Shown here: positions 1 through 64,000 of the stretch, piece by piece
How positions within the stretch are numbered: position 1 is the stretch's first letter
Layout: each line of letters begins with the position of its first letter
NCBI GenBank assembly: GCA_036785375.1
Contig: JAWMAR010001358.1
Location: forward strand, 62,001 to 126,000
Direction: 5' to 3'
Length of the DNA stretch: 64,000 nucleotides
Origin: Leucoraja ocellata
Taxonomy: Eukaryota
The notes under the pieces: model-generated
What the model was told of the DNA's origin: nothing
The model's input: the letters and a program-made list of their open reading frames with translations, nothing else
Databases searched by the model: none
Position numbers and translations under genes: made by a program

Positions 1-129
1 TCAAATCTGAGACTCCTCAACCTAACCTGAAACGTTCACCATTTCTTTCCACAGACGCCGCCTGGCCTGATGACAACAACTATTTGTTTTTATTATTTCA
101 TCTGCAGCTTTTAAAAATATATTTATTTT

Positions 130-2349
130 CATCAGCAGATTAAACTAGGCCTTGAGTTTGATGTGCACTTGGATCTCCAAGACTAAAGGAAATATTCTTG
201 TGGTGAAGAGTGTGGGGGTTGAGATTTGGAAATGTTAGCCATAAAGCTTACTTCCAACACCAGCTGACAGCAACAAGTCTTGAATAACCAATGGCAGTGC
301 AAGCCTTATGGATAAGTGAACATCATAAGCAATAAATGCCAAACTCCATGGCAATGTTATACAAAAGTTGTACAGGTCATACATTCAAAATAGTGAAAGT
401 TTAACCTCGATTTGCCACTGCTGGAAAAAGACTGGAAGCGGAGGTGAAAATGTGTGAGCACTTCAAGAATTAGATGGATGAAGATTTTCTTTGATTGGTA
501 AATTAAATAGGCAAGGGGCCTTTTGCATCTTATTCACCTTGAAAAATATCACTTCTGTATGTTAAGATTTAGAATTTACACATACAGGTCTCCTATTTCC
601 CCTCCATTCCTGTGCTCATGAAGGCACTATTTAAAATTATCTGAACAGCTACAGAAGTCACATTCAAATTAAATTGTTCCATTGGTCATCGCTGTATTTT
701 GGTCCTAACGTACAACTGATGTTACATTCTGATATTTCCACATTTAGTGTTCATTTCTAAAGTACTGTCACTGGGCTCGGTAACATGAAGCAAAACACTC
801 CAGAAGTTTAAGTAAAAAAAGACTGAATACTCATTCTCCCCACAGAAAGGAAAACTCAACACATTTGGAGGGAATATGCCTGAAAGAGTGAATTGATATT
901 AATCAGAGATGCTGGTGTGGATTGAAATGGCTTTTCTTTACTCCTTTTACACTTGCTCAGACTCACTGGAAATTTGGTATTTGCTACATCAGTCTAACTG
1001 ACTACTATTACTCTAGTAGTCCAGCTGACTACTATTGTGCACCCTCATATTGTATGAAGTTGAAGCACAAATCACCTCTACATGCACAGATCACTTTAAA
1101 CGAGGATCATCTCTATGGCACAACTTCAAAGATACTAACCCATTAAATATGCAGAATTTTCTTTAAATCACAATCTTTGGCTGATAAATCTGAAATGCAC
1201 TTCAAATGGGTCTACTGCAGCATTTAAGTTTCAGGAAGCTAGCTGATTGGGCTACTATAGAGCTGTGCTTGTATTTGGAGCAGCAATGGAAGAAAATGGG
1301 CTATGGAGAAATGTAACTAGAATATATTGGGAGAAAGTGCAGCAGTCCAACTACATCATAACAGAAAAAGATAGATTAAAGATTTTTGGCTGCAGTGTGG
1401 ATCACTATCCATTTTGATTGGGGTTAGATGTTCAAAATGTTAAATTCAAGCCTGAAGTACAATGATCTACACAATATTAATCCAGCTTTTCCTGCTAGGC
1501 TCATCATCTGTCATCATCACATATACAAATTAAAATGCAAAACATTAAATAGAAGAGGGGAGGGAGAATATCCTCTGGCTTTTATGTCAAAAATGTAAAT
1601 TAGTCCCATCACCTTTCAACCAACTCTTAATTAGGTTTAAATTAAAAGTTCTGGGGGGGGAGGTAGGAAATAAAGTGTTGTTAATGCAACAGTGAATAGG
1701 AAAGAAAGATTTAAAAAATATACATCCCTGAGAGAAAACAATTGAGTAGGTAGAGCTGATTGATGTATGTATGACTTCCATCGCCGATGCCAAAACAAAG
1801 TATGCTTTAGCCTATCACTAGTTTCAAAAACTATGAGCTAGTTGCTGCCTGAACACTCAAAGCTTGCACAAACAACCTTTGGAGTCTTATTCCTCAACAA
1901 ACAGAACAATGAGTAATACATTTACAAGATTTTTTCAACAATAATATTTCATTAAACATTAAATGTCAAATGGAATAAATTTTCTGCTTAAATAGTGCAC
2001 AAGCTGGTAGATGAAAATGTCTGATGCATCGGGATTTTGGAAGGCAACAGCATTTTCCAACAATGAATAAATCCTAAAAAAACCTTTCTCCCTTCTAAAC
2101 GTTTAGTGACAAGAGCAGCTGTAAATGCTGTATTCTTTCATAAATCATAGCTTCTGGTCCCACCATTATCTATATAAAATAGGAGTGTTTTTACAATTTG
2201 AAGAGCATAAATAACTGATATTATAAGGATAACTGTTGAGACAGTAGCTTGTGTGGAAGGCATGATTGTATATATAATGTCAATCTAGAATAGCATCTGC
2301 CGGTTTCCATTTCACATCTTGTACAGGAACTGCATTTGTTACCCGCGCA
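130..2349 (-). other. BAIAP2L1: Probable BAIAP2L1 3' UTR or downstream region (3' end not determined)
   Basis: Repeat-poor AT-rich sequence after the stop. The minus-strand AATAAA hexamers I found are at 122-127 and 88-93, inside a repeat fragment, so the poly(A) site is uncertain. Confidence 0.4.
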
Positions 2350-2422
2350 CTAAATCACGGGTGCCGATCTGTCATTTGTTACTGTTGGTCGGAGTTTTAC
2401 AGTTGCAAAAGGATTTCCTCCG
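2350..2422 (-). CDS. BAIAP2L1: BAIAP2L1 last coding exon 14: [23 protein letters not shown]
   Basis: Acceptor ttgttacag; WH2-like C-terminus; TAG at 2352-2350. Confidence 0.96.
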
Positions 2423-5400
2423 CTGTAACAAAAGAGAAAGTATGAGTATAAACAAGGAACCGCAGAGGGTGTTTTACAAAAAAAGACTGCTGGAGTAACC
2501 CAGCGGCTCAGTCAGGCAGCAAGAATGAGTGTTTCCACCATCACCATGGAAGACCGCAAACATCCGCACAATACCATCAGGTGAGGACAAATTAATTGTA
2601 TTTGGCCCCAATGTAAAATGACGCTATGTACCAAAAAAAGGGTTTTGCAAATATTAGGTGTCTGGATTTCAGTGTTATTATGTTATTTTTATGTCTACGT
2701 TTTTTGGCAGCTCCGTTCATGCAAGCAAAGGGAATTGCTCTGAAAGAGATATTCAGCAGAGAGTTTGCTCATATCATAGTGGATGCTTCTAGTTTTGTTT
2801 TATTCATTATATATGAGAAAATTCAAAGAGGTAGCAAAGCTTTTTCAAACTGTATGTTGTACGAAAACAAAGCTTACCAGGAACTGTTTCAAAGCAGCAA
2901 ACAATGTACAGTGGGAAACCACACTGATAACATGGCCAACAAAGCACTCCAACAGCTCTACGTTGTCCGAAGGTGGAGGAGATTATGCATGAAGATGGAC
3001 ACAAAGTGCTGGAGTAACTCAGCGGGTCAGGCGACATCTCTGGACAGAAAGGAAGGTTTCCTACCTGAAACGTCACCCATCCTTTCTTGCCAGAGATGCT
3101 GCCTGACTCTGAGTAACTCCAGCACTTTGTGTCTATCTTCGGTCAAAAACTGCATCTACAGTTCCTTCCTACACGGGAAATTCAGCATGTCCTTAATGAT
3201 TCTTACCAACAGATGCACCACAGAAAACATCCCATCTGGATGCATCACTGCTTGATATGACAACTGGTCGATTCAAGAACACAAGAAACTGCAGAGACCA
3301 ATGAAGGCTGCGGATCAATGAAGGCTGCCTCCACGCTATTCACTCCATCGAAAATTGTCACTGCCTTTGGAAAGCAGCTAACATAATCAAGGACCACTCC
3401 CACCCCAGTCATTCTCCCTTCCCCTGCTGGGCAGAGGATGCAAAAGCTTGAAAGCACGTTCCACCAGATTGAAGACTTTCGGTCCTGCTGTTATCAGAAT
3501 CTTGAACAGTCCTCTCAAACATCAAGAATTATTTATCTGTCAATCTACCTCGCTGCAGCCCTTGCACTTTTAAAACATACTAAAAATGTTTTTTTTACAG
3601 TTGAAAAAAACTAACGCGCTCCTGACATGGCTGCTGCCAGAGCAGCGCCCCCTACACGATGTAGATGAATGACGGGTAACATTTTGTACTACTATATCAT
3701 GACGCAAAGGAACTTTCCCATTAGAGAGAACCTAATACTTCCCTTGTCATTGACATTCAGCATATTTACCATTATCGATCCTTTACCATCAACCTCTTGG
3801 AGCCAAAAATACACCTGGAGCAGCCATATAAAAACTGGCTGCAAAAGCAAGTTAGAGGCGGGTTGTCCGGCAGTGACTGATTTGCCCCTCAGCACTTCAA
3901 ACTTCGTCCACCATAATTCGAGTGCTATTTGGTTTATTACTATTGTCACATGTACCAAGATACAGTGGACAAACTTTGTTTTGCATTACATTTAGGCAGA
4001 TTATACCTCTGGTATAATCAAGGTAATGCAAAAGAAAAAAATATGATGTAGCATGTGGCGTTACAGCTAGAGAGGGTGCGGATTTTTTTTTAATGTAAAA
4101 TTGTAAATTGTCCTGAGTGTGTAAGATAGTGCTAGTGGACGGGGTGATTGGTGGTCAGTACTGACATGGTGGGCTGAAGGGCCTGTTTCCGCACTGTATC
4201 TCTAAAGTAAAGTCTAAAGTCTGTGTTGGTTTGTTATATTGAGAGGTCCTGTAGTAATAAACAATAAAGCTATTTAAAAATACTTCTGTTATTTCCATGG
4301 GGGTTATACCCACTCTGCTTTCTTCCTGTTCAGTTATGTTGTGAAACAGGCTTGATTAGTTCAGTTGAAAGCAATGTTGGCACTGCATTTAACAGGTTAG
4401 TTAGAGCAAATCAAAATACACATTCAACACCCAGCAGGCCAGGCAGCATGCATGGAAAGAGAAATAGAACATTTCAAGTTGAATATCACTCAAAAGAACT
4501 AGAAAAGAGTAAAAGTTAGTTTTAAGTTGCAGAAAAGGTGGGGGAGGTCAAAGGGTTGGGATGGCTAGGTCAAAGGGACTATTTAACAAGGGGGATGTGG
4601 GCCAAACGCAGGCAAATGGGACTAGCTTACATGAGGTATCTTGGTTGGCATTCACAAATTGGGCCAAAAGGCCAGTTTCTGTGTTGTATGATTCTGTCTC
4701 TCTCTATCTTGTTAGATTTTGGCTAGGGTTGGTTTGGAGAGTGCAGGAACTAGGCAGAAAGGAGTGTGGGAACCGATGCCTTCAGATAGAATGGAGCACA
4801 GTAAACATCACCTGGTGAGCCAGATGCCAATCGTCAGGGAATTTCTGGGTGGTCAGCTAGCAGATATTTTAATGCACTGCATAAAGTAATCACTCATTCT
4901 ATATTTGTTTTCTCCAAAGAAGGGACACAGTGAATATCAAATGCTGCTGATTCAGTCTGCAGCGACAATCCCAAGCTTTTTGTTGCCTGTCGCTAACTCT
5001 CCATCCCATTCCCACTCTGACCCACACCATCTGTTGTAACAAAGCCCAAAGCAAGCTTGAGGACAGAACCTCATTGTCTGTCTGGGCACATACCAGTCAT
5101 AATACCGAATTCTCCATTTCAACCATCATTCTCTCTGCAACGTAAAAGTTCTTTTGATCTGAAACTTTAGTTAAAATTTTTTATTTTGAATCTTTGACTC
5201 TAATGCTTCCTGACCTGCCAGCATTGTGGCTTTGTGGTATATTTCTAGCATTTGATTTTCCTAATATGCTATTGTTGAGCACACGCTACTGGGAAGATTA
5301 TGAAGTTGTAGCAATATCTCTTACCTGAGGAAAGGTGGCTTCATAGTGCCATTCACTTCTGAACTCTGAAAGAAGGAAATGTAAATTTCATAATGCACAG

Positions 5401-8400
5401 GTAATAAAATATATTAAAATATCTAAGCTTAACTACATTAAATTTACCATTCAGGGTTTTCTGATCGTAATGCATTGTAGACATTGTACTGTGTTTATTC
5501 AGTAGAATCAATTTCAAAGTATATGTAGGCCATTCAGTACCAAGGTGAGAATACTTTCTGACTACAGTGAATTAATGGATTCAGAGTATATGCTAGACAA
5601 GGACTGACTTAAAAAAAACATTAACCAGAAAATGGCTGAATAGTCTAATTTCTGTTCCTAACTCAAATACATGGACTATGATCCTGTCAGGCAACCTTTG
5701 CTAAATTCCAACAAATTGTAAAATTATAGATCTTTCCATAAATTTATGTCCAGTTAAAAATATAATTATAATTTGACCATCTTTGCCAGTGGTGGGGAAA
5801 CTCTGATCTTAACCTACAGATAACTTTGATTTAACAATGGTTAATCACCAGGAAGCCCTCATATGTCAGCCATTTAGATGAAAATACATTGACCTGAAAC
5901 ATCAACTCTTGTTTCTCTCTATCACGAGCCGACAGACCTGCTGACTGTAGCCATTTCCATTTTTATTTCACATTTTCAGCATCTGCAGTTTTTGCTTTTC
6001 TAATCTAACAGAGCAGTGATAAGTAAAGTCAGATATAATTTAGAGGACATGCAATACATTTCTGTTACTCGTCCAGGTTTTTTCTTCCTTACTTTTCAAA
6101 AGTAGTATAAAACACTGCTTGAATGGATCCGCAATACATATTCTAAAGCTGACAGATCGGTTGGTGGTGATGGATGGGGCTAATTTACAGATTGGGAGAT
6201 ATTAGAATTTAGCATTTTTGGGTTGGAACTTTTTCTCCACGACTGAACCCAAGTGATAATCAGTATTTTTTTTAAAGTATAGAATATTTTAAAAATGAAC
6301 AAAATTAACACGTTCAAATTTAAAAACTGTTTTATTTTATTTGGACACTACATTTATCGGTGAAAGGGGATCAAGTTCCTTCCTGTCGCTTAAGAGGCTT
6401 AATGTTCCTGTCATGCAATACAAACCACAATCACACGATGGCAGTATTTAGTCAGAAAATTGGCACAGAGATCAGCTGTTCCCAATAAACCGATTCTCTA
6501 AACTTTATTTTAGAGATACAGCGCGGAAACAGGCCCATCGACCCACTGAGTCCGCACCGACCAGCGATCACCCCGTACACTAATACTAACCCACGCACAC
6601 TAGGGACAATTTTACAACTTGCCAAAGCCAATTAACCTCCAAAGCTGTACGTCTTTGGAGTATGTGAGGAAACCGGAGTACCTGGAGAAAACCCAAGCGG
6701 TCACAGGGAGAACGTACAAACTACATACAGACAGCACCCGTAGTCAGGATCAAACCCAGGAATCTGGCGCTGTCAGACCACAACTGTACCGCTACGCCAC
6801 CCAATTCCTTAACTGTGAAATTTGATGTAGGGTCTCGACCCGAAGTGCCACCTATTCCTTTTCTCCAGAGATGCTGCCTGACCCGCTGAGTCACTCCAGC
6901 ATTTTGTGTCTATCTTTCTTAACTATGAAATGTGGATACAAGGAACTGTAGATGCTGATTTATAAAAACATTGTCCTTAACTATAAAACCATTTTTTTTT
7001 TTAAATGGTAGCATACTCGTAAGTTCCACCTTTCCACACCAATCTTAAAAAAAAAAAGCAAGTGCAGCAAAAAAGAGAGAAAGAAAAACACCAACACGAG
7101 AGAGAAACTAGCAGGCAATAGATCTAAAAAACAAATAAAAAATAAAGTTTACCCTGAACAAAAACGGAAAAAGGATCTAGTTGTTATGGTCCACATTGAC
7201 ACTAACAACACAAGCAGAACTGGGAAGGATATTTTGCAGAGGGATTACGAGTGGCTTGGGGCAAAATTGAAAAGCAGAACCATGAAGGTCATTACATAGC
7301 CACGTGCAAATTGGCTGAGGGTAAATAAGATTACAGAAGTTATGGCTCAATGGTTGGTGTGAGGGAAATGATTTCTGGCTCATGAGGTACTGAGGGAGGA
7401 TGAATAGAGCTGCACTGCTGGGATGAGTTTTATTTACACTGTGCTGAGAGTAATGTTATGGGAAATCGCATAACCAAGATCATAGACATAACTTCAAACT
7501 AACTGGGTAGAACGATTCAAGTAATGGGAAGTTTATGGAATTAAAACTAATTAAGTAATGAAGAGGCAAGTTAAAATCAAAGGGCAGAAAGTATGCAGCA
7601 GAAATGATATCCAAATAACTTTAAATTGTTAAAGTCAAAGCTCAAGATTCTTTATCTGAATACACTCAGCATTTGTAACAAGACAAATGAAGTAACAGCA
7701 CTAACAGAGATAAGTATAGGAGTCGGGACGTCACATTAGAGTTATTTAAGCCGTTGGCAGGAGCAAATTTGAAGTCCTGTGTGCACTCCAGGCGATCTTG
7801 CTACAGGAAGAATGTCATTAACTGGAAATGGTGCAAAAGAAGACTTGATGTTACCAAAGTTTTAAGGTTTGAGTTACAAGGATAGGCAAGGACTTAGCCT
7901 TTTTTCCTCTGGAACGTAGGAGGCTGAGGGGTGACCTTATAGATGTATACAAAATCACGAGATAAGGTGAATTACCCAGATAAGGTCCTTTACCCAGAGT
8001 AGGCGAATCTAAAATCAGAGGACATAGGATTAAGGTGAGAGGGGAAAGGTTTAAAAGGAATCTGAGGGTCAACTGTTTCCACACAGAGGGTGGTACGCTT
8101 ATGGAATGTGCTGCCAGAGAAAGTGGTAGAAGCAGGTACAATTACAACATTTAAAAGATACTTGAACAGGTATATGGATAGGAAAGGGTTCGGGATAGGG
8201 GCCAGTTCAGGCAAGTGGGACTAGCTCAGTCAGGCAACTTGTTCGGCATGGACGAGTTGGGCTGAAGGGCTTGTTTCATGCTGTACATGAATTTTACGTA
8301 TCTATATGTTAGATAGCTATTACAGGAATACAGTTGTGGGGTGACCAGAACTGGGAACTCAATATTCCAGATTTTTCAATGTTCCAATAGGCAACAACAG

Positions 8401-11400
8401 AAAGGAGGTGGGTGGCATTGTTAACCAAGGACGGAATTAGTGAAGAGGTGAGTTATGATATAGATGCAGTGAATTGTTATGTGGAATCAGAGGAGTGTAA
8501 ATAAAGGATAGCAGGTAAAGGCAGACTGGTGGGGGTGGTCTATAGCCCCCCAATGTGTTGCCTCATAATAGGTAGAAGTATAAATGGCATGTCAGAAGGG
8601 AACAGCAATTAACACAAGCAATTTTAATCTGCATATTAATTGGATTTATCAAACAATCAATTGCACCAGGTCTGTTTTTAGAGCAACAGTGTATATTATA
8701 CTCTGGAACAGGCTATTTTAGAGTTTGTCATGTGCAATGAGGTAGGATTAATGAGAGAGTTTGTAGTAATGTTTCTATGGGAGAAGTGATCCTATGAGAG
8801 AAATAAATATATATTGTTTGAGGGTGAATACCTTGGGTCCAACTCTAGTGTCCTCAACTTAAAGGCAATTACAAAGGTATGGAGAAAGAGCTATCTAAAA
8901 TATATTGGGGGTGAAAAGCAAAGGTGAGCAGTGGTAGATAGTTCATAATGCTCACCGGCAATTCATCCAAACCAGAAAGAGGGATTCAATTGGAAAGATG
9001 GCAAAAGATTAAATAAAAAATTAAAGCAAACAATAATAAAAGTTATTGGACTGGGAATAATTCAGGAAAAGCTGTTAATATGGAGGACAAAATGATTAAG
9101 TGTAAATTGACATGATATCAAAACAAGCAGCAAGACATATAGATATATAAAGATGAAGAGGATGGTTTAGATAAGTGTGGAATTCCTTAAGGGAGCGATT
9201 TGGGAATCAATAGCAGGAGCAAAGACTAGGCAGATAACTTAAGTGGAGGAGTACAGAGGAGATTCATCAGAATTATTTCTAGGATGAAGCTTTTCAGCAA
9301 CAAGGAGAGTGTAGAAAGGCTGAGTATGTTTTCTGTGGCATGGAGGGGATAAGGGGACATCGAATTGAGGTACACATATGGTGAAAAGTGAAGAGGGAGA
9401 TTGAAACCTGGAACCTGCCCAAGGAGATGGAAGAGGCAAGTTCTCTCAACATTTAACAATATTTAAATGAGGATGTGAAACAGCATGGCATAGAACGGCA
9501 GGCGGCCGAAAGGTAAAATTTAGTACATGGGGATTTGTAGGGTCTGCTTTTGTCCTTGTCAGTACATGGCCGACATGATGACCTTCCAGCATAACTGGTC
9601 AGCTGAGACAGGAAAGTTGTTTGCCTGAAATTGCTGAATTCATTGTTGAGAGCTGAAGGCTGTCTGATGGAACAAAATACTTTCCCTCGGGCTTTTGTTG
9701 TGATTTGGTTGAACAATGCAAGAGATGAAATGCAGGTCTCAGTAGAACTAGGAGGAGGAATTAAAGTAACATGGAAACCAGTGTGAATGGGTGATCGATG
9801 GTCAGCATGGTGGGCTGAAGGACCTGTTTCCATGCTGCATCTCTAAGCTCTAACATGAAACAGGAAGTTCAAGATCACCCCTGAAGACTAAAAGCAAGCA
9901 TTCTTCAATGCAGTTAACTGATCTGTGTTTGCTTTCTCCGCTGTGGAGAACAGAAGAGAGCACAATAAATTGTATGTGCAAATGAATTGAAATGCTGATT
10001 AATTGGGAAAATGTCCAAGATTTGGAACAGTGGGAAGGTGTTGCATCTCTTACGGTTGCATGGGAAGGGGAGTGACTGTTCATGGAGATAACAGAATGAA
10101 CCAAGGAGTTAAGGGGAAATAACAATTCAGAATACTGAAAAGGTTGGGGAAAGAAGGAGTGCTGACTGCCAGCTTCTTGTTGAAAGTGGTGGCAATAACA
10201 GAGTATGATCCATAGTATGTGGGGCTGGTGAGGTGGAAGATGAGGATGGAGAGAACTCCTGTTTTGCAGGTATGCATCGGTAGAGAAATCCATTCCTTGG
10301 GGATCTCGGTGCAGCAGGGGTTGCTCAAGGAATATACCATAGGAGATGATCTGGTGTTAGTGGTTGAGCGAAAAACAGCGATTTTTAGTGAATCGAAGAA
10401 AATCCCTACAACAATGTTTCTAATAAAATAGAATTTCTGGATTTCAGAGCCAACACAAAAAAGGGAACAATATTTCCACCATCAAAAAAATATCCCCACT
10501 CACAATAGTTTCCATCTTGTAAGCTAGGGGCACAAAATAAACTAGAGAATTTTTGTTCTTGATTATTATTGAGTATTGGTATTGGACGAAATGACCGCAT
10601 GTTTAAACAACAAGTTTGAAAACGAAACAGTTAACCAAAGGAGGTCTGAGAAGGTGAGAACTGTACTTCTAAAAACATACATCAATGAGTGACCTCCAGA
10701 AAGAGCAGGAAATTTTAACAAAACAATTTAATATGATATAGAAGTATGGGAACTGGCAAAAATATAGTTGTTTTCAATATATTATTATTCTTTAAATTAA
10801 AATCTTACAAAATGGAAAATATATTTTTGGAAGGAAAGCAAGGTCAAACTTTATACAAATTTGGTGTTAGATAGATTGTGTGTTTTTTCCACCCCAATAA
10901 CTCTCATGAAACGTCATGATAGTGCAGCAGATTATTTCAGATGATAAAAAATGCAGAATTTAATGCTTGGGGACATGAGCAACTGAGTATCTTGCCCCAT
11001 ACTCCATGCCTTCTAACATTAAACATTAACTAGTAGCCTTATAATATTGAAGAAATTGGTTCTCATTTCAGACAGAATCACTCATACACGTCACATGAAT
11101 CTTGTGTAGGGCTTCAAGCAAGCTACTGTGCCAAGCACTTCTTTCAATTGCAATAAATCCTTCATAGATTTAGAAAACAATTACAGGCAAAGGACATGCT
11201 GATCCAAATATCAAGACTCCAAGTTCCCAGCCTAATTTATCGCCGCCACTTAATGCACAAGTTGCAGTTTTACACATCGGCTTTTAACACCTTTTCAAGC
11301 ATTGCATTTTTTTTTGCATTAACTTCCTAGCATTTATATTATTAATTATAAATGCATCTCAAAACAATGCAAGGGAGAACCCAGTTCCAAAGATAGCTCA

Positions 11401-50400: not shown

Positions 50401-53400
50401 GCAACTGTTGAAAATTAATATAGCAACATAAAAGCATGATCTTGTTACTCTCACACCCTAGTGATTTTCTCTTCTCCCCTGTCTTATTAGGCAGTAGATA
50501 ATAAAGCTTGAAAGCACTATCACCAGATTGAAGAACAACTTATTTCCTGCTGTTACCAGACTCTTGAAAAGTCAGTTCATCTGCCAAGGACAAATTTCCA
50601 ATCTTCTAATCCACCTCATTGTGGCCCAAGCACTTTTTATCTGCAGTTTCTCTGTAGCATCACATTATATTCTCCTCTGTTTCTTTTGTTTGGCACCATT
50701 GATGTACTCATGTATGGTTTGATTTGCGTTGGTAACACAGAAAATTACATTAATGTTAAAGTAACATTAATGTTCACTTTCAGTACAAAAAACTATAAAT
50801 TAGACAATAGGCAATGGATCAAAAGAGCTGGCTGAGAAATTTGTGTCTCAGTTTTAAAGGCAAACCTGATCAAAGACAAGATAGCGCAATACAATCCCAA
50901 ATTATTTCAAAGGATTACAGCCAAGTTCACATACCCAGTGTGCAACAGTACCTTCAAATTTATTTTTTTCCACAGGAAATCTTCACAAGCAAAGAATCTC
51001 TCTGCAAGCACCAATTTACAACATCAGCATTGTGACTTGTTAAACTGTTTTTGTTGCTAGAATTCATAATAGCTTCCACTTTATGAATGTGCCCCATTGT
51101 ATAACTATTTTAGGAGCAATGTTATAATGCATATCTAAATTTCCAAAACAGCTTTCCAAACATTAAAATTTAAATAGATGCTGAAATCAATTGACATCCA
51201 ATTAAACCATCGTTTAATCCCAAGATTATGTGTTATTGAAAATTTATACTGCCTTTCAACACAACCTTTCCAATTCATTCAGAAGACGCTTTTTAGATGG
51301 ATATCTTAATAATTTCAGTTTCCTGTTTACACTGTGAAAAGTTAGGTTGGTGTCATGACATGATGTAATGTTTCTCAAATCCTTTCAAAAATATTATGGA
51401 AATGTACTGAGACCATCATCCTGTCAATGGTTTACTTGACGGTAATACACCACAACTGACTGCCAATATCTGGTTTCCATTGGAAGGTTTTCCAAGCTAA
51501 ATGTTCTGCTTATAGCTTTAGCATCTAATTCAAATATTCATGTTCAACATCTTAGTTGCCACCACTGACCAGAATTAAACTGGGCCGGCCATGTAATTAG
51601 TGGCTACAACAGCAAGTCAGAAGCTGGGCTTCTTGCTGTGAGTGACTCACCTCACATCCTTGGAGGTTTTTCACTTTCTACAAATCACAAATCATGAAAG
51701 TAACAAAGTTCTTCAAAATGCAGCAAACTAATTTATTTCCCCCCAATTTTTTGGCAAGAATAATTATTAGCTTGAACCTCTTATTTATTTATTTTACTTT
51801 GATTTATTAATGCTTTTCAGGATCTAGCATTGATGGCAAGGCCAGCATTTAGTCTCCATCAAGAAGCAAGACAACTTGATGCAACATGAACTGCTGCAAT
51901 TTTTCCAGTGAAAGTATGTTCAAAGTGGTGCTGGATTGGGCGTTCCAGGATTTAAATGGCGATTATTAAAAAACCGCAACATATTTCCAGGTCAGAGCGA
52001 TGTGTGGTTTGAAGATAAAAATGCCAGTGGATGTACTTCCATCTGTCCCAAGTCTGTGCCTTACTAGATAGTAGTCACGGGTTTGGGAGGTGCTGGTGGG
52101 GTAGTCTGGGCAAGTATCTGCATTGCAGTTGTGGATGGTAGACACTGCAACCACTCCATGCAGGTGGTGGAGTGAATTCATGCTTAAGGTGACAGAGGCA
52201 GTACCAATCCAGTGGGCTATTTTGTTCTGTGTGAAGGTTCTCAAATATGATTACTACAATCCCAGCAAGTGGAGAGTATCCCATTACATTCCTGACGTAC
52301 TTTGCAGGAAGTGAAATGGCTTTAGAGTGTGAGGAGGTACGTCACTCATCACAGGATATCCAGCTTCTGACCCACTCTTGTACTCACTGTGGTTATGGGG
52401 CTTGACCAATACAATTCTGGTCAATGGTGGCCCCCAGAATGTCGATCACGATACATGGTATGGCAACAGCATTGCTTGTCAAGAGCAAGTGATTCACTAG
52501 CCAATTTTGTGGACTTTCATGGTGGCACAAATAATACTTGCAATAGTATCTGTGATCATATTTTCTGCACAACTGCTATATGTTGGAGCAGGTCTGTATT
52601 TTATGCCCTTATTTATGAAATCATTGTGGGCACAGGATAAATGAACTAAAAATATTCCCTGTTAACTGCCTCGTCTTCACTCAGTAAAAATTACAATGTT
52701 GGTACATTTTTCTTAGAACAATATCAATCTCAGTTAACAGTGTAAATCCTAAAAAATTTAAGAACAGAGATTATAAATTCAGAGCATGCTTACCACTTAA
52801 CACAGTATTATTAACAATTTCAACACGAAAGTTAAACATAGCCATGTTCTCCAGCATCTGCAGTTCCTTCTTAAACACATAGCCATGTTTAATTTGGTGC
52901 ACAAAATATTTAATAGTATATTGTAGTACAATAGATTTCTCACTGGTGTCTTGCCCTTTATTTAACCCTCAATCAATAATATTGGGGAAAATAGTCTAGT
53001 CATGTATTTAGTTATTCTCTTTGAAATGTTATTGTGTGCAAATTAACTGGCGCATTTACCAATGCTATAAAAGTACCTAAGGCTCACATATACCTCCGCT
53101 CAGTCCGCAATAACCAACCTGACCTCCCGGTGGCTCAGCACTTAAACTCCCCCTCCCATTCCTAATCCGACCTCTCTGTCCTGGGTCTCCTCCATTGCCA
53201 GAGTGAGCAACACCGGAAATTGGAGGAACAGCACCTCATATTCCGCCTGGGCAGTTTGCATCCTGATGGCATTAACGTTGAATTCTCCCAATTTTGCTAG
53301 CCCTTGCTGTCTCCTCCCCTTCCTTAACCCTCGAGCTGTCTCCTCCCATCCCCCCGCCCTCGGGCTCCTCCTCCTCCCTTTTTCCTTCCTTCTCCCCCCC

Positions 53401-56400
53401 ACCCCCCATCAGTCTGAAGAAGGGTTTCAGCCCGAAACGTCGCCTATTTCCTTCGCTCCATAGATGCTGCTGCACCCGCTGAGTTTCTCCAGCATTTTTG
53501 TGTACCTCACATATACTTAATTGGTTGTAAAATGTATTGGGAAATTGTAAAACAACGGGTGCAGTGCAAATTTCGGTTAATTCTTGGCTCGAGGCACTTT
53601 TATCCCTTAACATAAATATCTAAGACTTCTCATAAATATTAGTGGTCAGTTTGCACAATGACTAGTCATTTATTTAAAGTATCAGAAAACTGGACATGAA
53701 ACACGACTAAGGAGTGTTCCCAAAGTATAAAATGTGTAGATGGATCCATGGTAACATTTGCCCTGCAAATTTGCTTTCTCAAGTGTTAAAGTAGCTTGCT
53801 TGGGAGTATTTACATTGTATACATACAGACTAATGACCAAGAGCAATTTGAGAACAAATATTTCATCTGCTGCTCATCTGAAATAGTGAAAAAACGATGT
53901 GTAATAAAAATGCCTGAAGTCTTCAAAGCAACAGTGTGTGCAGCTTTCTTCATGGTCAGCAAGGTCAACTGCTTCCATGCCATTGACTTTAATAAAGGTT
54001 TTCAGGTATCAGCTTAGGGAAGTCCATAGGGATACATAACTCAAGATGAGTGAACAGCCAATCATGTTGAAGAATTTTCATATGGTAAACCGGGAAACAA
54101 CAAATATAAACTTATTAACCAATATTGTAACCATTTTACACAATAGAAAATAAAGATTGAAACATGCAAGATAAATAAATTGAATGATACTTAAAATTGT
54201 AACAAATATTTTGTAATGTGGGAGGAGTAATAACCTACATTGAAGATTTGTTTCTGTTAGGCACCCATAGGGTGCTGAACAATATTTATGGCATAAGACG
54301 ATAACACAAATTCACTTGGAGTCATAGAGTGATAGTGTGGAAACAGGCCCTTCGGCTCAACTCATCCACACCTGGCCAACAATGCCCCAGCTACACTAGT
54401 CCCACTTGCCTGCGCTTGGTCCATATTGCAACATTTTTGAAATATTCACAGAAATACTCGTTCATAAATACTTCATTTTTCATACTTGCCTTGGAGGCTG
54501 GAAAACAGTCATTCTTGGGAAATAGGAATTACAGTTGGTTGCTCTAGGATTTTGATTTGGCATCATGTTTAGCATATACATCATGGGCAGAAGGGCCTAT
54601 TCCTATGCTGTACTGTTCTATGATAGTTAACCATGCACATACATAGCCTTTACTTGCAGTTTGTTTTAACGACAGTGATACAGATACTGTTGCCATTGTT
54701 GAAAATGTAAAATCAAGATTCAATCCCAAGTGTTCAGGTCAAAATTATGGAGCCCTCAAATGAAAGGAAAGAGCTTTAATACGTATATAAAATGGAATTA
54801 TAGTAGTTTATATATCATAACATTGTTATGACATATTTAGTTATTCTTTGTAATTTATGCTGTAAATACCTCCCTCCCAGTATAACAATTAAATTAACTA
54901 TGTGCATGGTGTTAACACTTTATTTTTATTTTTAAGATGTAGTCAGCAAACTGAGATGAATGGAAAGAAAATGTGCTTTTCCCTGTAGATTTTTACATTC
55001 ATTTCCAGATCTGTCTAATGGCAGACCTGGAAAGAGCTGAACAAGAATATTCCATTCATGGCAGTGAATGAACAAGCCTCTGTCTAGTTTTGCTAACATA
55101 CTGCCAGATTTCACACGGTATGGGAAGATGAGAAGGGAAGTGTGCAGAAATAATACAAGAAACAATAAGGGACTGTGAAAACAATTTATATACTTTTCAT
55201 AACCTCAGGAGGTATCAAAGCAATTTATGGTCAATGAAGTATGCATGATGTGTAATCACTCTCATGAAGAGGGAATGATAAAACAAGAGAGTATGCAGAG
55301 AGGGACAAACTGTTAATTTTACAGTTGGATTACATTTGAGAAGAACTGGCCATTTCCGATACAACCAGGGAAAAACTGCCTGTCTGAAATTGCTGAGTTC
55401 TGTATTGAGTCACAAAGAAAGCAATGTGCATAGGTGGAAAATGAGGATCTGCTTCAAGCTTTTGTTGTTTTTGTTGGGTCTAGATGAAACAGTATGGGAA
55501 GCAACAGATTAGCAGGTCCGAGAGAGTTTGAGATATGGATAATTAATTTAGTAAAGATACAACATGGAAATAGTCCACACAGACCATTGATCACCTGTTC
55601 ACACTAGTTCTATGTTATCCCACTTTTGCATACACTCCTTACACATTAGGGGCAATTTACAGAGGCCAATTAACCTACAAACCCTGAAGTTCTGAAGTAA
55701 TCTGAAGAATGGTCCTGACCTGAAACATCACATATTCATGTCGTCCAGAAATGCTGCCTGACCTGCTGAGTTGCACCAGCGCTTTTTGTCCTTCTTTTAA
55801 GCCCACAAACCCATATGTCTTTGGGATATGAGAGGAAACTGGAACACCTGGAAGAAACTCACACAGTCACAGGGAGAACGTGCAAACTCCACACTGACAT
55901 CACCCAAGGTCAGGGTCGAACTAGGGTTTCTGGCTCTGTGAGGCAGCAGCTTTATCAGCTGCGCCACTGTGCCACCCTAAAGTGAAAGGTAACTGGAAGA
56001 GCAGGATCATCATTGCAGAATGAATAGAGGTGTTCTGCAAAGCATCAAAATATGCAGTGCAGAGAATATTCCTTTTGTCCAATACGCCCTAACCTGCCCT
56101 CTACAACTTGTTTTTTTTCTACTTTGTTGGCACAGCTGATAGAACCGCTGTCCCTCAGTGCCAGAAGCTCAGGTTCATTCTTGATCTCAGATATCTCGCT
56201 GCATGGAGTTTGCATGTATTTCCTGTGATGGAATGGGCTTCCTATGGATGTTCTGTTCGATTCCCATATCCCAAAAACCAAAATCAATTGCACTGTAACT
56301 TTGCACCTTGGCGAGTGGTAAAATCTTGGGGTGGAGGGGTGAAGAACGATTGGGAAGTTGTTGAGCGTGAGGAGAATAAAATAATGATATTAACAATAGT

Positions 56401-56544: not shown

Positions 56545-56879
56545 CTGTTAAAAATCAATAGAAAAAATTATTTTGACATATGGCCTTTTAATTATTTCGG
56601 CACGTTTCACAGACAGTACAAGATACCAACAAGAGCAAACCTGGTATCTCACGAATGTTGTATTGCAAGGAATTTCTGAGAATCATTACAACTATTTTAG
56701 TTACATAACAAGTATATAAAACTACACTTGAATTCCAATATACCAAATGAAGCGCATGTGGCTGGGTGGATCAAAATTAAGACCAGAATTTACATAGTAC
56801 CCATCACACCCAAAGCTGTCACAAATACTGTAGTCAAAGAGAGCAACATTAGCAAACAGGACTGGCAGGTGCACGGAAA

Positions 56880-57640
56880 CAATTGAAGTTGGTTTAAACT
56901 GCTTTCATTTTAATACTAGAGGTTTAATAGGTAAGGCGAATGAACTCAGGGTGTGGTTTGGCCCTGGGCAATGGGATATTATATCCATAACAGAAACCTA
57001 GCTGAGAGAAGGCCAGGTCTGACAGCTCAATGTTCCAGGATACATAGATGTGATGGAGATGCAAGGGGAGGGGGTGGTTGGCTTTTTGGTCAGGGAGGAT
57101 TAGAGGGGATATTCTTGGGGGATCACCTACTGAGGCAGGATGGGTATACTTAAAAACGGGAGGGGAATTATCTCTTTTAGGGGATTGTATTTGCAGCTCC
57201 CAATAGTCAGCATCAATTAGATGAGCAGATATATAGGGAGATTGTAGATTGACGTAAAACTAATAGGGTGGTATTAGCATGAGATTTCAACATCCGTAAT
57301 ATTGACCCCCCCCCCCTCCCCCTAGTGTAAACGGCTTGTATTGGGATAGAATTTGTTAAGTGACCAAAATAATCTTTCTTGACCAATATATAAATGGCCC
57401 TACAAGCGAGGGAACACTGAACCTCCTTTTGGGAAACAAGATAGAACAAGTGATTGAAGTGTCAGTGGAGGAGCACATTGGGACCAGTGATCATAACTCA
57501 AGTAGTTATGGAGAAGGATAGGACTGACCCACAAGGTTCTAAATTGGGGAACAGCTAATTTGAGAGGCATTAGGGGGAAACTTGCAGAGGTCGTTTGGGA
57601 GAGTGTGCTTGTAATGTAGGAGATGCAGCAACCAATTTAC
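56880..57640 (+). mobile_element. CR1 LINE ORF2 endonuclease remnant
   Basis: Decayed ..YFN.RGL.GKA.ELR.W, IT ET*L, GGGGGW, DFN, and EHIGTSDHNS motifs across frames. Confidence 0.7.
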
Positions 57641-58481
57641 AACCATGTGGTCCCAAAATAACAACTTACTATTATCCAAATAATCTATTTTAATCATATT
57701 GACCAAGGGAAATATACAATGTACATTATACATTGTATAACACAATGGAACACTTCCCTCATCTTCAATATCCTCATCAAGCTGAGAGAGTAGGTAAGGG
57801 GTCATTTGACCATCTCATCTAAAAGCAGCATTTTGGGCAATGTAACGCACAATAATACAACGGGGTAACGTTTTGAGCTCAGGAACTTTCTTAGTCGTCC
57901 AAGTCAAAAAGATAGTGATGCTGACAAAGCCACAGCTGACATCTATATATTTTATTTTCAAGTTTGCAAACACTGCAAACCCATTACAGTAACTGAAAGT
58001 ATATATGCAGCTAATCCTTCTTAAAAGGTAAAGAATTGAATTTTTTGGATGGAGTGACTCCAGTTACTTTACAGTATTATATGAAATAAATCTTGGGTAG
58101 AAATGAGTCTCAAGTCCATTGCACGCTAAGTGAAATATTCCTTCCTTTGAGGTTTCTCTTCCTATTCAAGTATTTTATCAATTTAAGATTTGGCTTTTCA
58201 AGGGCTATTGAGGAGAGTAAACACAAGACAAAGTTTAATTGTTTTTTTGAAGTCACAAGACACTGCAGATGCTGGAATCTGGAGTAAAAAATAAACTGCT
58301 GAGGAACTCAGTGGGTCAGGCAGCATCTATGGAGGCAATGTTGTGTGTTGAGACCCTGTATTAGGATCGAGATTGGAGCGGGCAGAATGTAAATTATACT
58401 GGGCATCTCATGTTTTACTATTAGTGCTGATGCAACCAACCTGATACTTAGACCTCAACCAAAATGCTGTAGATACAGTAT

Positions 58482-60863
58482 CAGGGCTCTCACTTAACTT
58501 TTTTCCCCTGTTGCCAGCCGGGCAGCTTTGACAGCTTTTTAGGTTGCTAAATAACAGTTTAGGTGGTCAATTTAAGACGACTTGCATGACGCGTGTGATA
58601 ATGTGCTCGAACGAAGTGCGTAGTTACCAGTCGGAATTATACTCAATGAAGCATTCACATATTATTTCTGCTTCTAATAATGTCACAAACTAAACATATT
58701 CGCCAATCAAGACATGATATATACCACAATGACATGCAGCAAAGTTACAATACCTTTTTACACATTGCAATTAATGCAATTTCTATTATTTCTTTCTACT
58801 TCCCAACAAAAATGTGGTTGGATTATTCAGCGTATGATCAACCTGTGTCAATAAATCCTGGACGATGGTAACATATATGCTTAACCATGCACACTACAGA
58901 TTGATGCAAGCATGTTTTCCGTGAAGGACCGAAAATTATCATGACATGGCCATAGCATGGGTCGTTATTGCTATTGGTACAGAAACACTCTCGCTTCCCA
59001 CATAATTTATCCACAACAAAATATACAGGTTGCAAAGAAATTTCTAAAGGCATTTTATGATAATAGCTGTTAAAACCGACTATACCCATCTGATAAGTTA
59101 AACATTACACTAACTGACAGTAGATGGCCAAAGGACATAACTGCATCAAATGTTCTTTTGGTAATATGTTTAAAGGTGTCAAAATGCCACATTCCAGGAA
59201 TTTCAGATTAAATGTATGTGTTATGAACATCAATGAAGATACCCTGTTTGTATGCACCAGGTTTAAAAAAAATTATTGATAAACGCTGTTTCAATCATCC
59301 CCACTTCACAATTAACGTTAAAATTTCAACCGAAATATCTGCTGACCAAATTTGTGCTGTATATGACCGACAGTAGAAGTTAAACCTGGATAAATCCAAC
59401 GTATAGTTGTGAATGTTGCTCATTAAATAACAGTACTGATACTCCATATTAAGAGCATTGATTTGCTGTTAAAATGAATTCTGTAATAACATGTCAACGG
59501 TAGCTGTGACAATCGAACACTGCGGTTTAAATGTTTCACATGTTCACAATTTAATTAACGCATCTTTATGGATTAAAACAAATAATAACATTGGGATGTA
59601 AAACAAATTTGATTGCATTCCGTTATCAAACATAGTCAATTTTTGCTCTGAAGACATTTCCAGCACAGTAGGGTGGGGGGGCTGTGAATCAGTGTGGGAT
59701 GGATAAATGGCGGGGGGGGGGGGGGGGTTAGAAGGCAAGGTGCGGGATGGATGGATTGAGGCAGGGGAATTAGTGCGTGTTGGTTGGAATATGTAAAATT
59801 GTGAGGGGAGAGCGCGGGGGATGTCAGTGGGGTTAAATGGGGTGGATCAGTACAGGATTGACGGGGGGGGGGGGGGCATCAGTACAGGATGAATGAGGGG
59901 ATCAGTACAGGATGAATGGGGGGAGGCAGTGCAGGATGGATGGGAAAGGGGGTGAGTACAGGATTAATTGGGGGACCAGTGTAGGATGGATGGGGGGGGG
60001 GGGGGGGGGGGGGTGGCAGGAGAATCAATGCTAGGTGGATAGGGAGATCAGTGCAGAATGAATAGATGGGGGCGGGAAGGGGGGGGGGGTAGATGGGGAG
60101 GGGAGCACAGGGGATGTCAGTGAGGACTGAATAGAGTAGAGGCGGGAATGGGGATCAGTGGAGAGGAGGGGTCCCAGGATAAGGAGGCGTACATGAGAGA
60201 GAGAGGGGGAGGGGGGGTAAGAGGTGGGGAGGAAGGAAGGTCAGCGCTCATCGGACATGGACGGTATCATCGCCCTGCTGCCTTGGCCGTCCCTGTCCAC
60301 CGCCAAGTGCCACCGACAAAGGGGGAGGCAGTTGGGATCTCCTCGCCAGCGCCTCCCCTCCTCCGCCAGCCAACAGAAGGTGTGGGGCCGAGCGGTGCAA
60401 CTGCTTCAGACGGTGGAAGGAGGCCTCCCCCTTCCTTCCCCCTTCCCGTCCTCGGCGTGCGGGTTTGTTTTGAAAGCGGTTATCGCTGTTAGTGGATTGG
60501 CAAGCAGCGGCCGCTATCAGGGCGGGCGGGGTGCTGGAGGAGGAGGAGGAGCCGCTATCGCTGCCGCTGGCAAAGATCCAATAGGATCTTTGGCCGCTGC
60601 TGTGCGGGGCCTGTCATTCGCTCCGACCCTCCGCCACCCCACACCCCGTATCTTTGCTCCGCACTACGTCGTCGCCACCGACAGGAAACATCGCGTTCCT
60701 TTTCTCCAGAGACGCAGCCTGACCCGCTGAGTTTCTCCAGTTTTTCGTGTCCATCTTCGGTATAAACCAGTGCCAAACCGGGCAAAATGTCTCAGCATTT
60801 AGGTTGCCCGGCGGCACTTTGGGTGGTCATTGGCACCCGGGCAACCGCTAATTTCGAGCCGTG
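58482..60863. mobile_element. About 2.4-kb non-autonomous DNA transposon with a 5-bp TSD (hAT5-like)
   Basis: Ends CAGGGCTCTCACTTAAC / GCTAATTTCGAGCCGTG; AGTAT on both sides (58477-58481 and 60864-60868); subterminal TTGCC/GGCAA repeats; no intact transposase seen. Confidence 0.72.
59670..60230 (+). repeat. G-rich minisatellite inside the DNA transposon (unit about GGGGATCAGTRCAGGATGAATG) with poly-G runs
   Basis: Repeated CAGTACAGGATG/CAGTGCAGGATG units; G run at 59992-60013. Confidence 0.85.
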
Positions 60864-62342
60864 AGTATCCACAGATGACCTGCCGAGTTCTTCCAGTCTT
60901 TAATTGTTTCCTTGACTGTCGATAGCTTAGTGCTAAAGTAAAAATTTCAAACCCTGGTATATAAATAAAGTCTTTATTTAAGTATATGAAATGGCCCAAT
61001 TGCCATCTTTTCAAATCACAAGTTTACAAAGAAATACACCCATTATTCAGCTGGGACTAAAACCATAGAATAAAATGATAAAGATCAGGATAAATTCCTT
61101 TGATCAAGGCAAGTTTCAAATTATTCGCATTCTATTAAGTTCACTTAGCAAACTAATCTTGACATAATGAAAAGAATGGAAATATTATTTTTTTGAGGGC
61201 TGGGTCTCCTTTTGGACCAACTAGGAATAGAGCTATTTTTCTACAGAGCACTTACTAAACGTAAAGCATAATTTCATAATTGCATTTTGTAAACCCCAAC
61301 TTGCAGATTTAATTGACTTATTCCTCATGGAATAAGAACAAAAGCTATGTAAAAAGTTTAAATTAGATTTTCTTTAAAAATCTTACAGAATGTCAGCTGC
61401 TCTTTTTAAAAAAAAAAAACAGTAATAACTGGAGGATTTCTAATTTTGTCTTTAAAAAAAAGGCAATGTGTAAAAATGTGGTTAGAAAGTCTTTCATTTT
61501 TTTTCATTAGGTCTCTATTGCAGCTCAACTATAATTGGAAAGGGACCTTTCAACAATTAAGATGAACTCCCGAGAATAATTACAATTAATTTATTTCCCT
61601 TAAATGACAACAACCAGACCAAAAATAGCTTGCATCTCTTTTAATCAGGGATAGATATCTTTTAAATATCCTGCCCAATTAACCGGTAGCAAGTACTTTT
61701 TTTGAAACAAGGGCATAGCTAAAGGCTGGATAAAAACCAATTTCCATTGTGTGCAACATGGCATGTCATAGATTTAATGGTGGACTTCACCAGGAGAAAG
61801 TATTGTTCCTTAAACATGTCTGCAAGGAATTTGAATTAGCCCAGTCATTCTAATTACACCAGCATTAATTTCATGACTTTATATTAGGATCAGACTTCAT
61901 CCAACTTCTTTGCCCATTTAATAGTTTCAGATCTTCAAGGTACATTGATGTTTTGCGATATGCATCTTCAATTTACAAAATTATGTTGTCCTATAAAGAT
62001 TAGTGAGCACAAGAATTCAATGCATCAGATTTCCTATACTACATTCCACACAGCCTTTTCAGTTTACAAACGTTTATTGCAGGAAATGTTTTTGTAAGAA
62101 TGCGGCCTCTTATAAATTGAGTAATGACTGTACCCTTACTGAGAATAAAGGACTGGTCTAATAAAGCAGGTGACCTATCCCTATAATTTCCTAGATATAA
62201 TTACCAATTTTTATGCAAAATTATCCCATGGTTATTTCCTCACTAAACTGATAGAATGCAAATTGAGAGTTAAGGCATGATTGAACACTAAAGTTAACTC
62301 TATTTGGAACTCAACACTAGTTCCAGAATCAAGCTATATTTA

Positions 62343-63160
62343 TGATGGCGGACTGCAGGGGTGATGCGCCGTTGTGTATGGCTGCTCCTCCTGCAGTCCG
62401 TCCTTTCACCCTTTTTTATTTTTAGTCCTGTCCGTACAAAATGTTTATTGGAGGTCTTCTTTTATGTGGTGGGTGGGGGGAGGGGAAGGGGGAAACTGTT
62501 TTAATCCCAGTCCTACCTGGTCGGAGATGCGGTTTTCTTCCGAACCGCATTTTCGTCCTCTCTGTGCGGCCTACCATCAAGCTGGAGCAGCGTTTCCTGC
62601 CGGGACTGCAGCTTCGCCGGCGGTGCAAATGCTGGGACACCAACATCGTTGAGCTGCGGCTGCAGAGCGTCCAGCCGCGGGCGGACGGCACTGGATTTTC
62701 AACACGGCGGGGCCTGGGATCCGAGATCGCCAGAGTCGGAGGTCCGGCCGGCGCGGCCTGAGAACTTTGGACATTGCAGTCTTCGGGGAGGAAGCGGCCG
62801 CTTCAGTCCAGGCCGCTGAAGAATGTTCACCCGACGCCGATGATCCAGCTTCGCGGCAGAGGGCCTGACAACATCGGGTTGGCTGAGGAGGCCACATATA
62901 GACCCCGACCTCGGGTGGACTATGAGGGGGAGAACTGGATATTTTTAGTGCCTTCCCTCATAGTGAATTCTGCTGTGGGGGGACGTTTCTTGTTGATTTC
63001 TATAGTGTACTGTTCTGTGTTTCTTTTTCTTTTTTCTTTTTTCTGGATTTATTGACATTTAATCTATTCAATTAGTTTAATCAATCTCTGTAAAGCACTT
63101 TGGTTCAAAGCGATTTTGTTTAAAAGTGCTATATAAATATTATTATTATATTATTATGGT
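62343..63160 (+). mobile_element. GC-rich non-autonomous retroposon with an L2-type 3' tail
   Basis: Starts GATGGCGG, CpG-rich body, ends TGTAAAGCACTTTGG...AAAAGTGCTATATAAATA followed by (TTA)n. Confidence 0.6.
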
Positions 63161-64000
63161 ATTTTAAAATTAATACAGAGCAAAATCACTGCAGTGGCAG
63201 TTACAACTGCACCTTTCCAATGTAATACCAAAATAAAAATTTTGGTCAACAGAACTGCATTATGAAAATGTTTCTATCGCATTTACTCTGTGGCTAAATA
63301 AAACTTCCATAATTCTGTCAAATTCCATGACTTAGGTAAATCTCTAGATTAAATGGAATTGCAGGAATAAACTTAAATTAAACCAGATTTATTAAATGTA
63401 AAGGCAGCTGCACATTAGCTGATTCATCTTCTAAATGTAGACTCTTAAAGACACATATTATTTAATCCTTGCTCAAAATCTGAGTCAGCCTTAAAATACT
63501 GTCCCCATTTTCGGTTTCCTTAAAGTTTGACTTTGGACTGAAAAGAAGGCTTCGAAATGAATTCCCAGTTTGTAGAATTATAGGTCATCATGATAGAATA
63601 AAGAAAATAGGACACTAATTTTAGTACACTGAGAGATTCAATAGATATTTAAACAATAATGGCTATCGCTGAAAATCTGAAATAAAAATCTGAAATGAAA
63701 ATGCCAGTACACGCAGCAGGTCAGGCAGTACTTGTGAAAAAGACAGTTGTCATTTCAGGTTGAAGACCTTTCATCATGAAGCTAGAAAATTATTTGATGT
63801 TGTAGTGGGTGGAGATCAGTTGAATCATTTAAGTATTTGCATAAAGAGTCATATAGCACGGAAACAATCCCTTCAATTCGCACTGACCCAACACCCATCT
63901 GCACGATGTGATGTCTCCAGAAGGATTCAGACCCAAAACACTACGTATTCTTTTTCTCCAGAGATGCTGCCTGACCTGTTGAGTTATTCCAGCATTTTGT

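Follow-up and report, generated by a model that had tools for sequence, protein, structure and literature searches.

The genome of the skate Leucoraja ocellata raises, in a 64-kb stretch of contig JAWMAR010001358.1 (assembly GCA_036785375.1, positions 62,001 to 126,000 of the forward strand; hereafter the window), the question of how a short module bearing a hammerhead ribozyme came to be scattered over its entire length. A sequence-only reading had offered two answers, namely 5'-truncated insertions of a Penelope-like element (PLE) that stall at the ribozyme fold, or a non-autonomous, retrozyme-like RNA mobilised by the PLE enzyme. We find that the module represents the terminal repeat (pLTR) carried by a Neptune-type PLE of ~4 kb, and that the family is a real and very abundant repeat of a known kind. 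The testable addition is a model, to which we assign a probability of about 0.5, wherein the short modules would be full run-off products made on the 5' leader of the capped mRNA that the element itself produces.

Module, parent element and copy ends

Positions in the module are counted from the C of the CUGA core at window 53414 (position 0), placing the predicted hammerhead cut between +27 and +28. We ran a profile built from 143 copies on 864 kb of sampled DNA, comprising the window and 16 blocks of 50 kb chosen from 16 contigs, and on shuffled DNA. It recovered 39 segments in the window and 479 in the whole sample, with none in shuffled DNA, bearing out the claim of more than 25 dispersed copies; the 32-nt motif of that reading has eight window matches with at most three mismatches and none in 100 shuffles. 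As the segments cover 4.9% of the sampled bases across the window and the 16 blocks, the window is typical and not a hot spot, and extrapolation to the 3.44-Gb genome gives roughly 1.9 million segments. Genome-wide counts were taken as exact patterns of two 50-mers, which occur 6,070 times (GUC-type) and 36,354 times (GUU-type), together 42,424. Raw counts are inflated in this assembly because segmental duplicates and repeated blocks are common; the 3.4 kb around window 53094 have a 99.6% identical duplicate at G000:C58:1479974-1483385. The window also holds fewer insertions than segments, because six head-to-head inverted pairs are present among the latter.

The hammerhead appears to be of a minimal type I, with a CUGAnGA / GAAA / NUH core, a paired stem II and no helix III. 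Stem II is made of three G-C pairs and a U-A or U-G pair, U2.1 pairing with G or A in 71 of 88, with changes that are one-sided only. The predicted fold is weak (z 0.6-0.9, the z-scores being uninformative), and an Rfam scan of the window returned no hammerhead match. The label of hammerhead-bearing, given to the modules at large, suits only a minority of them: 18 of the 39 window segments reach the CUGA, and three of the 39 (35 of 479 overall) retain an intact minimal hammerhead. No tandem arrays of the module were seen in the window, and direct pairs with two cores number six among the 479 segments.

The parent element was recovered by walking upstream in the genome from the window remnant at 53092-53300, which led to a 909-codon frame with a reverse transcriptase (RT), a DKG motif, a CX4CxxC linker and, at its C-terminus, an endonuclease (EN) of the GIY-YIG type. 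The remnant is identical to the end of this RT+EN frame at 42 of 43 amino acids; it is indeed a GIY-YIG C-terminus, and the proposed physical link of the module at 53094-53505 to the end of such an open reading frame (ORF) holds. PF00078 (RT, E 1e-6) and PF01541 (E 8e-4) are found in a single ORF, each just under the Pfam cut-off, and Pfam gave no match on the 44-aa remnant itself. The linker, CNRKKCNTC, conforms to the CX2-5CxxC motif before the EN, which in the available text of PMC8557442 is common to Neptune and Nematis and absent in Poseidon; therefore, the linker places the element with Neptune or Nematis and fits both. In natural near-full-length copies (e.g. L292 and L293), two modules flank the element at a distance of 3.8-4.0 kb, and an ATG at ~+162 serves as ORF start, so the module acts as terminal repeat at the 3' end and as leader at the 5' end. 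A partial tandem begins at -742 in L273/L274. All PLE copies examined are broken by stops or frameshifts. Full-length copies (L291-L296) also display variable 27-bp coding tandem repeats (GPDLPNMAA-like) in the N-terminal part of the ORF, ~900-1100 nt into the element.

The ends of the copies were mapped in a young set, for which matches were taken in contig order, namely the first 90 among the 6,070 of GUC-type and the first 30 among the 36,354 of GUU-type; from these, 106 were kept after dropping 14 duplicates among the 120. Their 3' ends fall at two points, +89 to +95 (64/106) and +126 to +130 (32/106). This is the known optional tail of PLEs, defined in an anole PLE, as far as the available text of PMC11167929 goes, by two internal AC-rich RT start sites. 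Conversely, the 5' ends gather at one edge: 48 of the 93 copies that reach +3 stop in -8 to +3, where 1.8 are expected from the upstream rate, corresponding to a ~36-fold hazard. This peak at the ribozyme edge is also present among young copies without an inverted arm (33/74). We observed it again (33 of 83 5' ends) in a second set anchored downstream at +59 to +79, such that the cleavage site is visible, with 142 of 168 copies kept after removal of duplicates; only five of 124 ends lie at +25 to +30, with a single one at +28. Seen from the cleavage site, the peak thus lies 30 nt upstream, beyond the hammerhead fold. Stop rates are alike in the two subfamilies (37/69 and 11/24), and short and long copies carry the same haplotypes (p=0.10 for a difference, in a small sample of short sequence). 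Four independent full-length copies keep the 5' core, three of them starting at -2, -2 and -9 and the fourth being the partial tandem from -742, and two further ones are cut at ~+55 to +60.

Artefactual alignment ends were rejected as an explanation, as target-site duplications (TSDs) abut the ends. Among 40 direct short copies, 33 show a TSD match of at least 7 nt, ~24 of these at least 8 nt, although such short matches can be due to chance. Joints commonly have 1-5 nt of microhomology or a short filler, and an inverted arm accompanies 22 of the 62 short copies. At many 5' joints, the first 6-12 bases of the element itself are briefly copied again, resembling slippage, or templated repair, where a template ends. 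In the window, the four TSDs of 11-14 bp that had been claimed at 18339, 26024, 45290 and 52836 proved exact, and the starts proposed to lie at the CUGA edge do so, at 25262 (-6), 26129 (-2), 45431/45429 (-2 to 0) and 55701 (-1).

Proposed leader run-off and its rivals

Directly observed are the PLE identity of the module, the two 3' ends, the 5' edge in short and full-length copies alike, the ORF start at ~+162, the TSDs and the inverted pairs. From these we posit, with the even odds stated above, that the short modules are complete run-off copies of the leader. Slightly more tentatively, we propose that PLEs prime RT within the 5' leader of their own capped mRNA, the default product being a strong-stop cDNA of 100-135 nt that is integrated directly. 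Transcription would start at the A of ATCAGT at -6. The RT/GIY-YIG protein would bind the leader, nick the target and prime internally at one of the two AC-rich sites, and such priming has been seen in vitro for the anole PLE (in the available text of PMC11167929). The RT would then meet the RNA end after ~100 or ~135 nt, the cap being sometimes copied as an extra G at -7, and repair through 1-5 nt of microhomology might shift the joints a few bases downstream. Head-to-head pairs would arise from priming on both nicked strands, and longer copies from read-through (partial-tandem) RNA or a template jump, with hammerhead cleavage not being needed for stub formation. In the Penelope of D. virilis, the start site and an internal promoter lie within the pLTR, and an intron separates the start from the hammerhead (PMC2377424).

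The copies that pass beyond the tail offer a further view of the leader. The exact module-leader junction occurs 314 times genome-wide, and the first 30 of these gave 24 independent copies passing +129. Three of them run on into the ORF, and in 21 the leader piece ends by +290, mostly at +199 to +267, and is followed by a module or untranslated region (UTR) piece downstream. Because 21 of the 24 leader pieces end by +290, we conclude that RT re-engages in the leader, which suggests that it stays tethered there and re-primes after drop-off. This fits the in vitro priming described in PMC11167929, where, in the available text, sequence ~55-60 nt beyond the start sites is needed. In a series of partial tandems (L261-L290) the upstream piece ends at +145 to +290, with clusters at ~+199, +212 to +219 and +248 to +267, some at AC-rich spots; three of them (L286, L287 and L290) have two hammerhead cores ~220-290 nt apart. 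The joints of these mini-tandems differ from copy to copy; hence, they are not copies of one circle.

RNA reads were available from a related species, with reads mostly 90-95% alike, and comprise 1-5% of four runs from two studies whose libraries were of the poly(A) and single-cell types. Coverage of the module in them is thousands-fold, with 75-94% of the reads running on into unlike sequence, and loose ends fall at the same three boundaries as in the skate, this species being the single basis for the conservation of the edge. At +160 to +168, the ATG sits in a splice-donor-like AAG/GTATGC, and no spliced joint was found among the joints shown in these reads.

If the RNA begins at -6, a copied cap could appear as a G at -7; an extra G marks capped full-length L1 insertions (available text of PMC11702581). 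Among the 676 GUC copies that have a base other than C at -7, we took the first 50, of which 26 have flank-like upstream DNA, 25 after removal of one duplicate. These copies end at -6, and 14 of the 25 have G as the base at -7, where 28% would be expected (p=0.003); by eye, ~6 of the 14 are untemplated by target or arm and ~6 match a G of the target. No long GUC copy from unselected loci shows a G at -7 (0/50). In older subfamilies the proportion is 10/25 by script and 28/67 by eye among the 100 matches listed (p~0.01), and the control at -4 gave G in 27/100 by eye. A count of ~27/47 among flank-like -6 ends (by eye) was set aside, being confounded by a subfamily with a templated G.

Several observations weigh against leader run-off. 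About half of the young copies extend as far as the 3' UTR and could not have been made on a strict leader template; therefore, read-through RNA or a jump is needed for these. The commonest 5' end in young copies is -2, not -6. The RNA reads show no pile-up of starts or ends, in libraries that are blind to small or circular RNA and swamped by passenger copies. The excess of G is modest, with four positions or sets having been examined: there is none before -3 ends, it is weak before -2 ends (36/100 by eye, ~28 expected), and when all peak ends are pooled and compared to ORF truncations it is not significant (16/37 versus 10/40, p=0.10). Moreover, some G at -7 may be templated, because 13 of 20 long copies of the commoner GUU subfamily and three selected GUC long copies also have a G there.

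A block at the C run would likewise yield a sharp edge, full-length copies included, and is a serious, if rather unlikely, rival. Here, ordinary 3'-primed PLE copies made on read-through or circular RNA would stop at the C run or polypyrimidine tract just upstream of the hammerhead, through homopolymer slippage, a G-quadruplex formed by the nascent cDNA or protein bound there, with about half terminating and being trimmed to microhomology. A single template type would suffice, the edge directly abuts a 14-nt C run at -20 to -7 whose length differs among long copies, about half of the copies get past it, and the second set has a mild rise of ends at -20 to -9 (8/50). Nevertheless, ends are almost absent within the run itself (1/45 at -11 to -9), a C-rich patch at -64 to -55 produces no clear block, and a G at -7 is not predicted. 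The pyrimidine tract followed by CAG/TCTGA also fits a splice acceptor, and the stubs might then come from spliced or splicing-intermediate RNA; the modal end at -2 and the intron of D. virilis, which stops where helix I has its 5' end (available text of PMC4209133), speak in the same direction. However, the ends spread over -8 to +3 instead of lying at -1, and the TSDs usually abut them directly without a shared upstream exon, making this origin improbable.

Two further accounts involve the ribozyme itself. As the stubs include its 5' half, the 5' edge is not a cleavage product. The retrozyme-like alternative supposes an independent non-autonomous RNA, self-cleaved and perhaps circular, that would be mobilised in trans by the PLE protein. 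It could explain the excess of the two 50-mers over the 314 module-leader junctions, the modules with TSDs of their own and the few two-core mini-tandems (e.g. -1 to +216 followed by a copy from -3), and animal retrozymes have been proposed to derive from pLTRs (available text of bioRxiv 10.64898/2026.07.22.740005). Yet the unit is not bounded by the cleavage site, arrays are lacking in the window and direct two-core pairs are few, every mini-tandem joint is different, and a separate lineage is not seen in either the haplotypes or the stop rates; the rarity of intact cores and the run-on of most RNA reads into unlike sequence point the same way. We hence consider this part of the sequence-only reading, for which no peak at the cleavage site was found, to be very improbable. 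Its other proposal survives to the extent that the modules are terminal pieces of a PLE inserted by the PLE machinery, but a stall of the RT at the hammerhead fold is the least credible of the explanations: an enzyme moving 3' to 5' is already past the fold, which is weak, when it arrives at the main peak. A shoulder of ends at +4 to +24 (36/119) could be ascribed to such stalling, but many of these are joints of inverted arms at the palindromic stem II.

Insertions in the window

Insertions in the window are listed below, with the tail-only piece of 29 nt (52850-52878) counted on top of the 39 segments. The old insertion at 34746-35156 offers a window example of leader re-engagement: its part at 34835-34872 corresponds to ~+150 to +187 in a full-length copy and is joined to the start of a module.

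Module-related features of the window, with exact target-site duplications (TSDs) where present
Feature	Coordinates	Strand	TSD
Young 5'-truncated PLE copy (-322 to +93)	53083-53516	+	11 bp, 53083-53093 / 53506-53516
GIY-YIG/CCHH C-terminal ORF remnant, one internal stop at 53163-53165	53092-53300	+	
3' UTR, pyrimidine-rich, C run at end	53301-53407	+	
Module: ATCAGT edge (-6), CUGAAGA core at 53414, 4-bp stem II, GAAAC-GUC, 3' end +93	53408-53507	+	
Predicted hammerhead cut of ORF-linked module	between 53441 and 53442	+	
Head-to-head insertion; inverted arm 18351-18449 (-), direct arm with tail 18452-18557 (+)	18339-18568		11 bp, 18339/18558
Young insertion; arm 26037-26129 (-, from -2, intact core) and short direct tail piece	26024-26168		14 bp, 26024/26155
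Young solo module with tail (-2 to +128), GT microhomology at 5' joint	45290-45441	-	12 bp, 45290/45430
Tail-only insertion (+101 to +129), without hammerhead	52836-52889	+	13 bp, 52836/52877
Older solo module, intact core, start at -6	25262-25383	+	
Older module, start ~-1	55701-55801	+	
Old head-to-head insertion holding mRNA-leader pieces beyond +129	34746-35156		
Old head-to-head pair	2989-3167		
Old head-to-head pair	15673-15864		
Old head-to-head pair joined at TCAG-T-CTGA near-palindrome	27269-27484		
Older module	6823-6918	+	
Older module	18030-18127	+	
Older module with tail, without CUGA	28391-28494	-	
Older module with tail	40354-40467	+	
Older module, own pyrimidine-rich UTR before it	42426-42516	+	
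Older module with tail	44739-44852	+	
Older module	60679-60770	+	
Older module cut by window end	63914-64000	+	

A much older, AT-rich subfamily of the module is found at 23-108, 5890-5991, 25768-25877, 46062-46150 and 48583-48665, a sign that elements of this type came in repeated waves. Very old PLE-like ORF or 3' UTR remnants of other subfamilies occur at 9850-10356 (minus strand), 22700-23190 and 38629-39012 (minus strand), and a Pfam scan of 9850-10353 gave no match. As to the targets, modules are inserted into a short interspersed element (SINE), seen at 25228-25261, 25434-25500 and 55650-55900, and the same target is seen at other copies in the genome; we take this SINE to resemble shark HE1 or V-SINE. 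In the 5' flanks of L235 and L250 (also L141 and L151), the same target repeat, containing AGATCTTTG, adjoins several copies, and it is possibly a preferred target or a duplicated region. A 23-bp minisatellite lies at 59872-59997, and like sequence flanks modules in L375, L376 and block L031. The window also has an RT fragment at 49959-50357 on the minus strand (PF00078, E 4e-11), presumably of a CR1/L2-type long interspersed element.

Known systems and implications

The skate family shares with EN+ PLEs of the Neptune and Nematis groups (Craig et al. 2021, PMC8557442; Arkhipova et al. 2013, PMC3846280) the RT, linker and C-terminal GIY-YIG, the hammerhead pLTR, heavy 5' truncation, an adjacent inverted copy, the optional tail of 30-40 bp, TSDs and solo pLTRs. 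In the available text of these papers the inverted pLTR, tail, TSD and solo pLTR are standard for PLEs, and against it the skate family differs by its scale, i.e. the share of sampled bases given above, and by the sharp 5' edge at the hammerhead front. Dispersed single minimal hammerheads, 'probably related to truncated PLEs' and with opposite-strand pairs 100-700 bp apart, were published in 2014 for metazoan PLEs (Cervera and De la Pena 2014, PMC4209133). Those hammerheads have the same CUGAnGA core, unpaired base before stem II, absence of helix III and palindromic ACGU as the skate module, in which stem II has 4 bp and helix I ~2 bp; in the available text of that paper sharks and rays are not among the named vertebrates and end positions are not mapped.

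A further parallel is PAc, a Poseidon PLE of Anolis (Frangieh et al. 2024, PMC11167929), in which the tail is likewise set by two internal AC-rich sites of RT start, both strands are nicked and extended, hammerhead cleavage is not required and no reads end at the cleavage site. It differs in that its ORF starts inside the hammerhead, whereas that of the skate element starts at ~+162, and the available text of the paper contains neither a map of the 5' ends of genomic stubs nor a proposal that copying runs off where the RNA is capped. Animal non-LTR retrozymes (Cervera and De la Pena 2020, PMC7229834; Li et al. 2026, preprint) are likewise non-coding, pLTR-related and built on a type I hammerhead, and include dispersed monomers. 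Nevertheless, as far as the available text shows, they form tandem repeats of 150-450 bp, mostly with canonical hammerheads, and yield unit-length and circular RNA, whereas arrays are absent among the skate modules, whose core is minimal and whose ends bear no relation to the cleavage site.

In retroviruses, priming near the 5' end of the RNA yields minus-strand strong-stop DNA, a short run-off cDNA of the terminal repeat. In contrast, priming by the skate PLE would take place on nicked chromosomal DNA, and therefore the run-off product itself would be integrated. Searches of the open-access PMC and bioRxiv literature gave no description of this family for sharks or rays, and none of any strong-stop model.

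The regeneration of PLE terminal repeats, and the reason why tandem and inverted ends are left behind, are questions stated to be open in the available text of PMC2377424 and PMC8557442. The skate genome, with tens of thousands of near-identical young stubs, has a bearing on them, as the two ends of these stubs record the points of priming and stopping. If the 5' edge is not a capped start, the family is an ordinary, very abundant repeat. Conversely, if it is, internal priming would be extended from an in vitro observation to a genomic rule: leader priming would have given this genome its hammerhead stubs, in the order of a million of them, the start site of the element would be fixed at ATCAGT (-6), and the process would have supplied the two-hammerhead mini-tandems from which retrozymes can arise.

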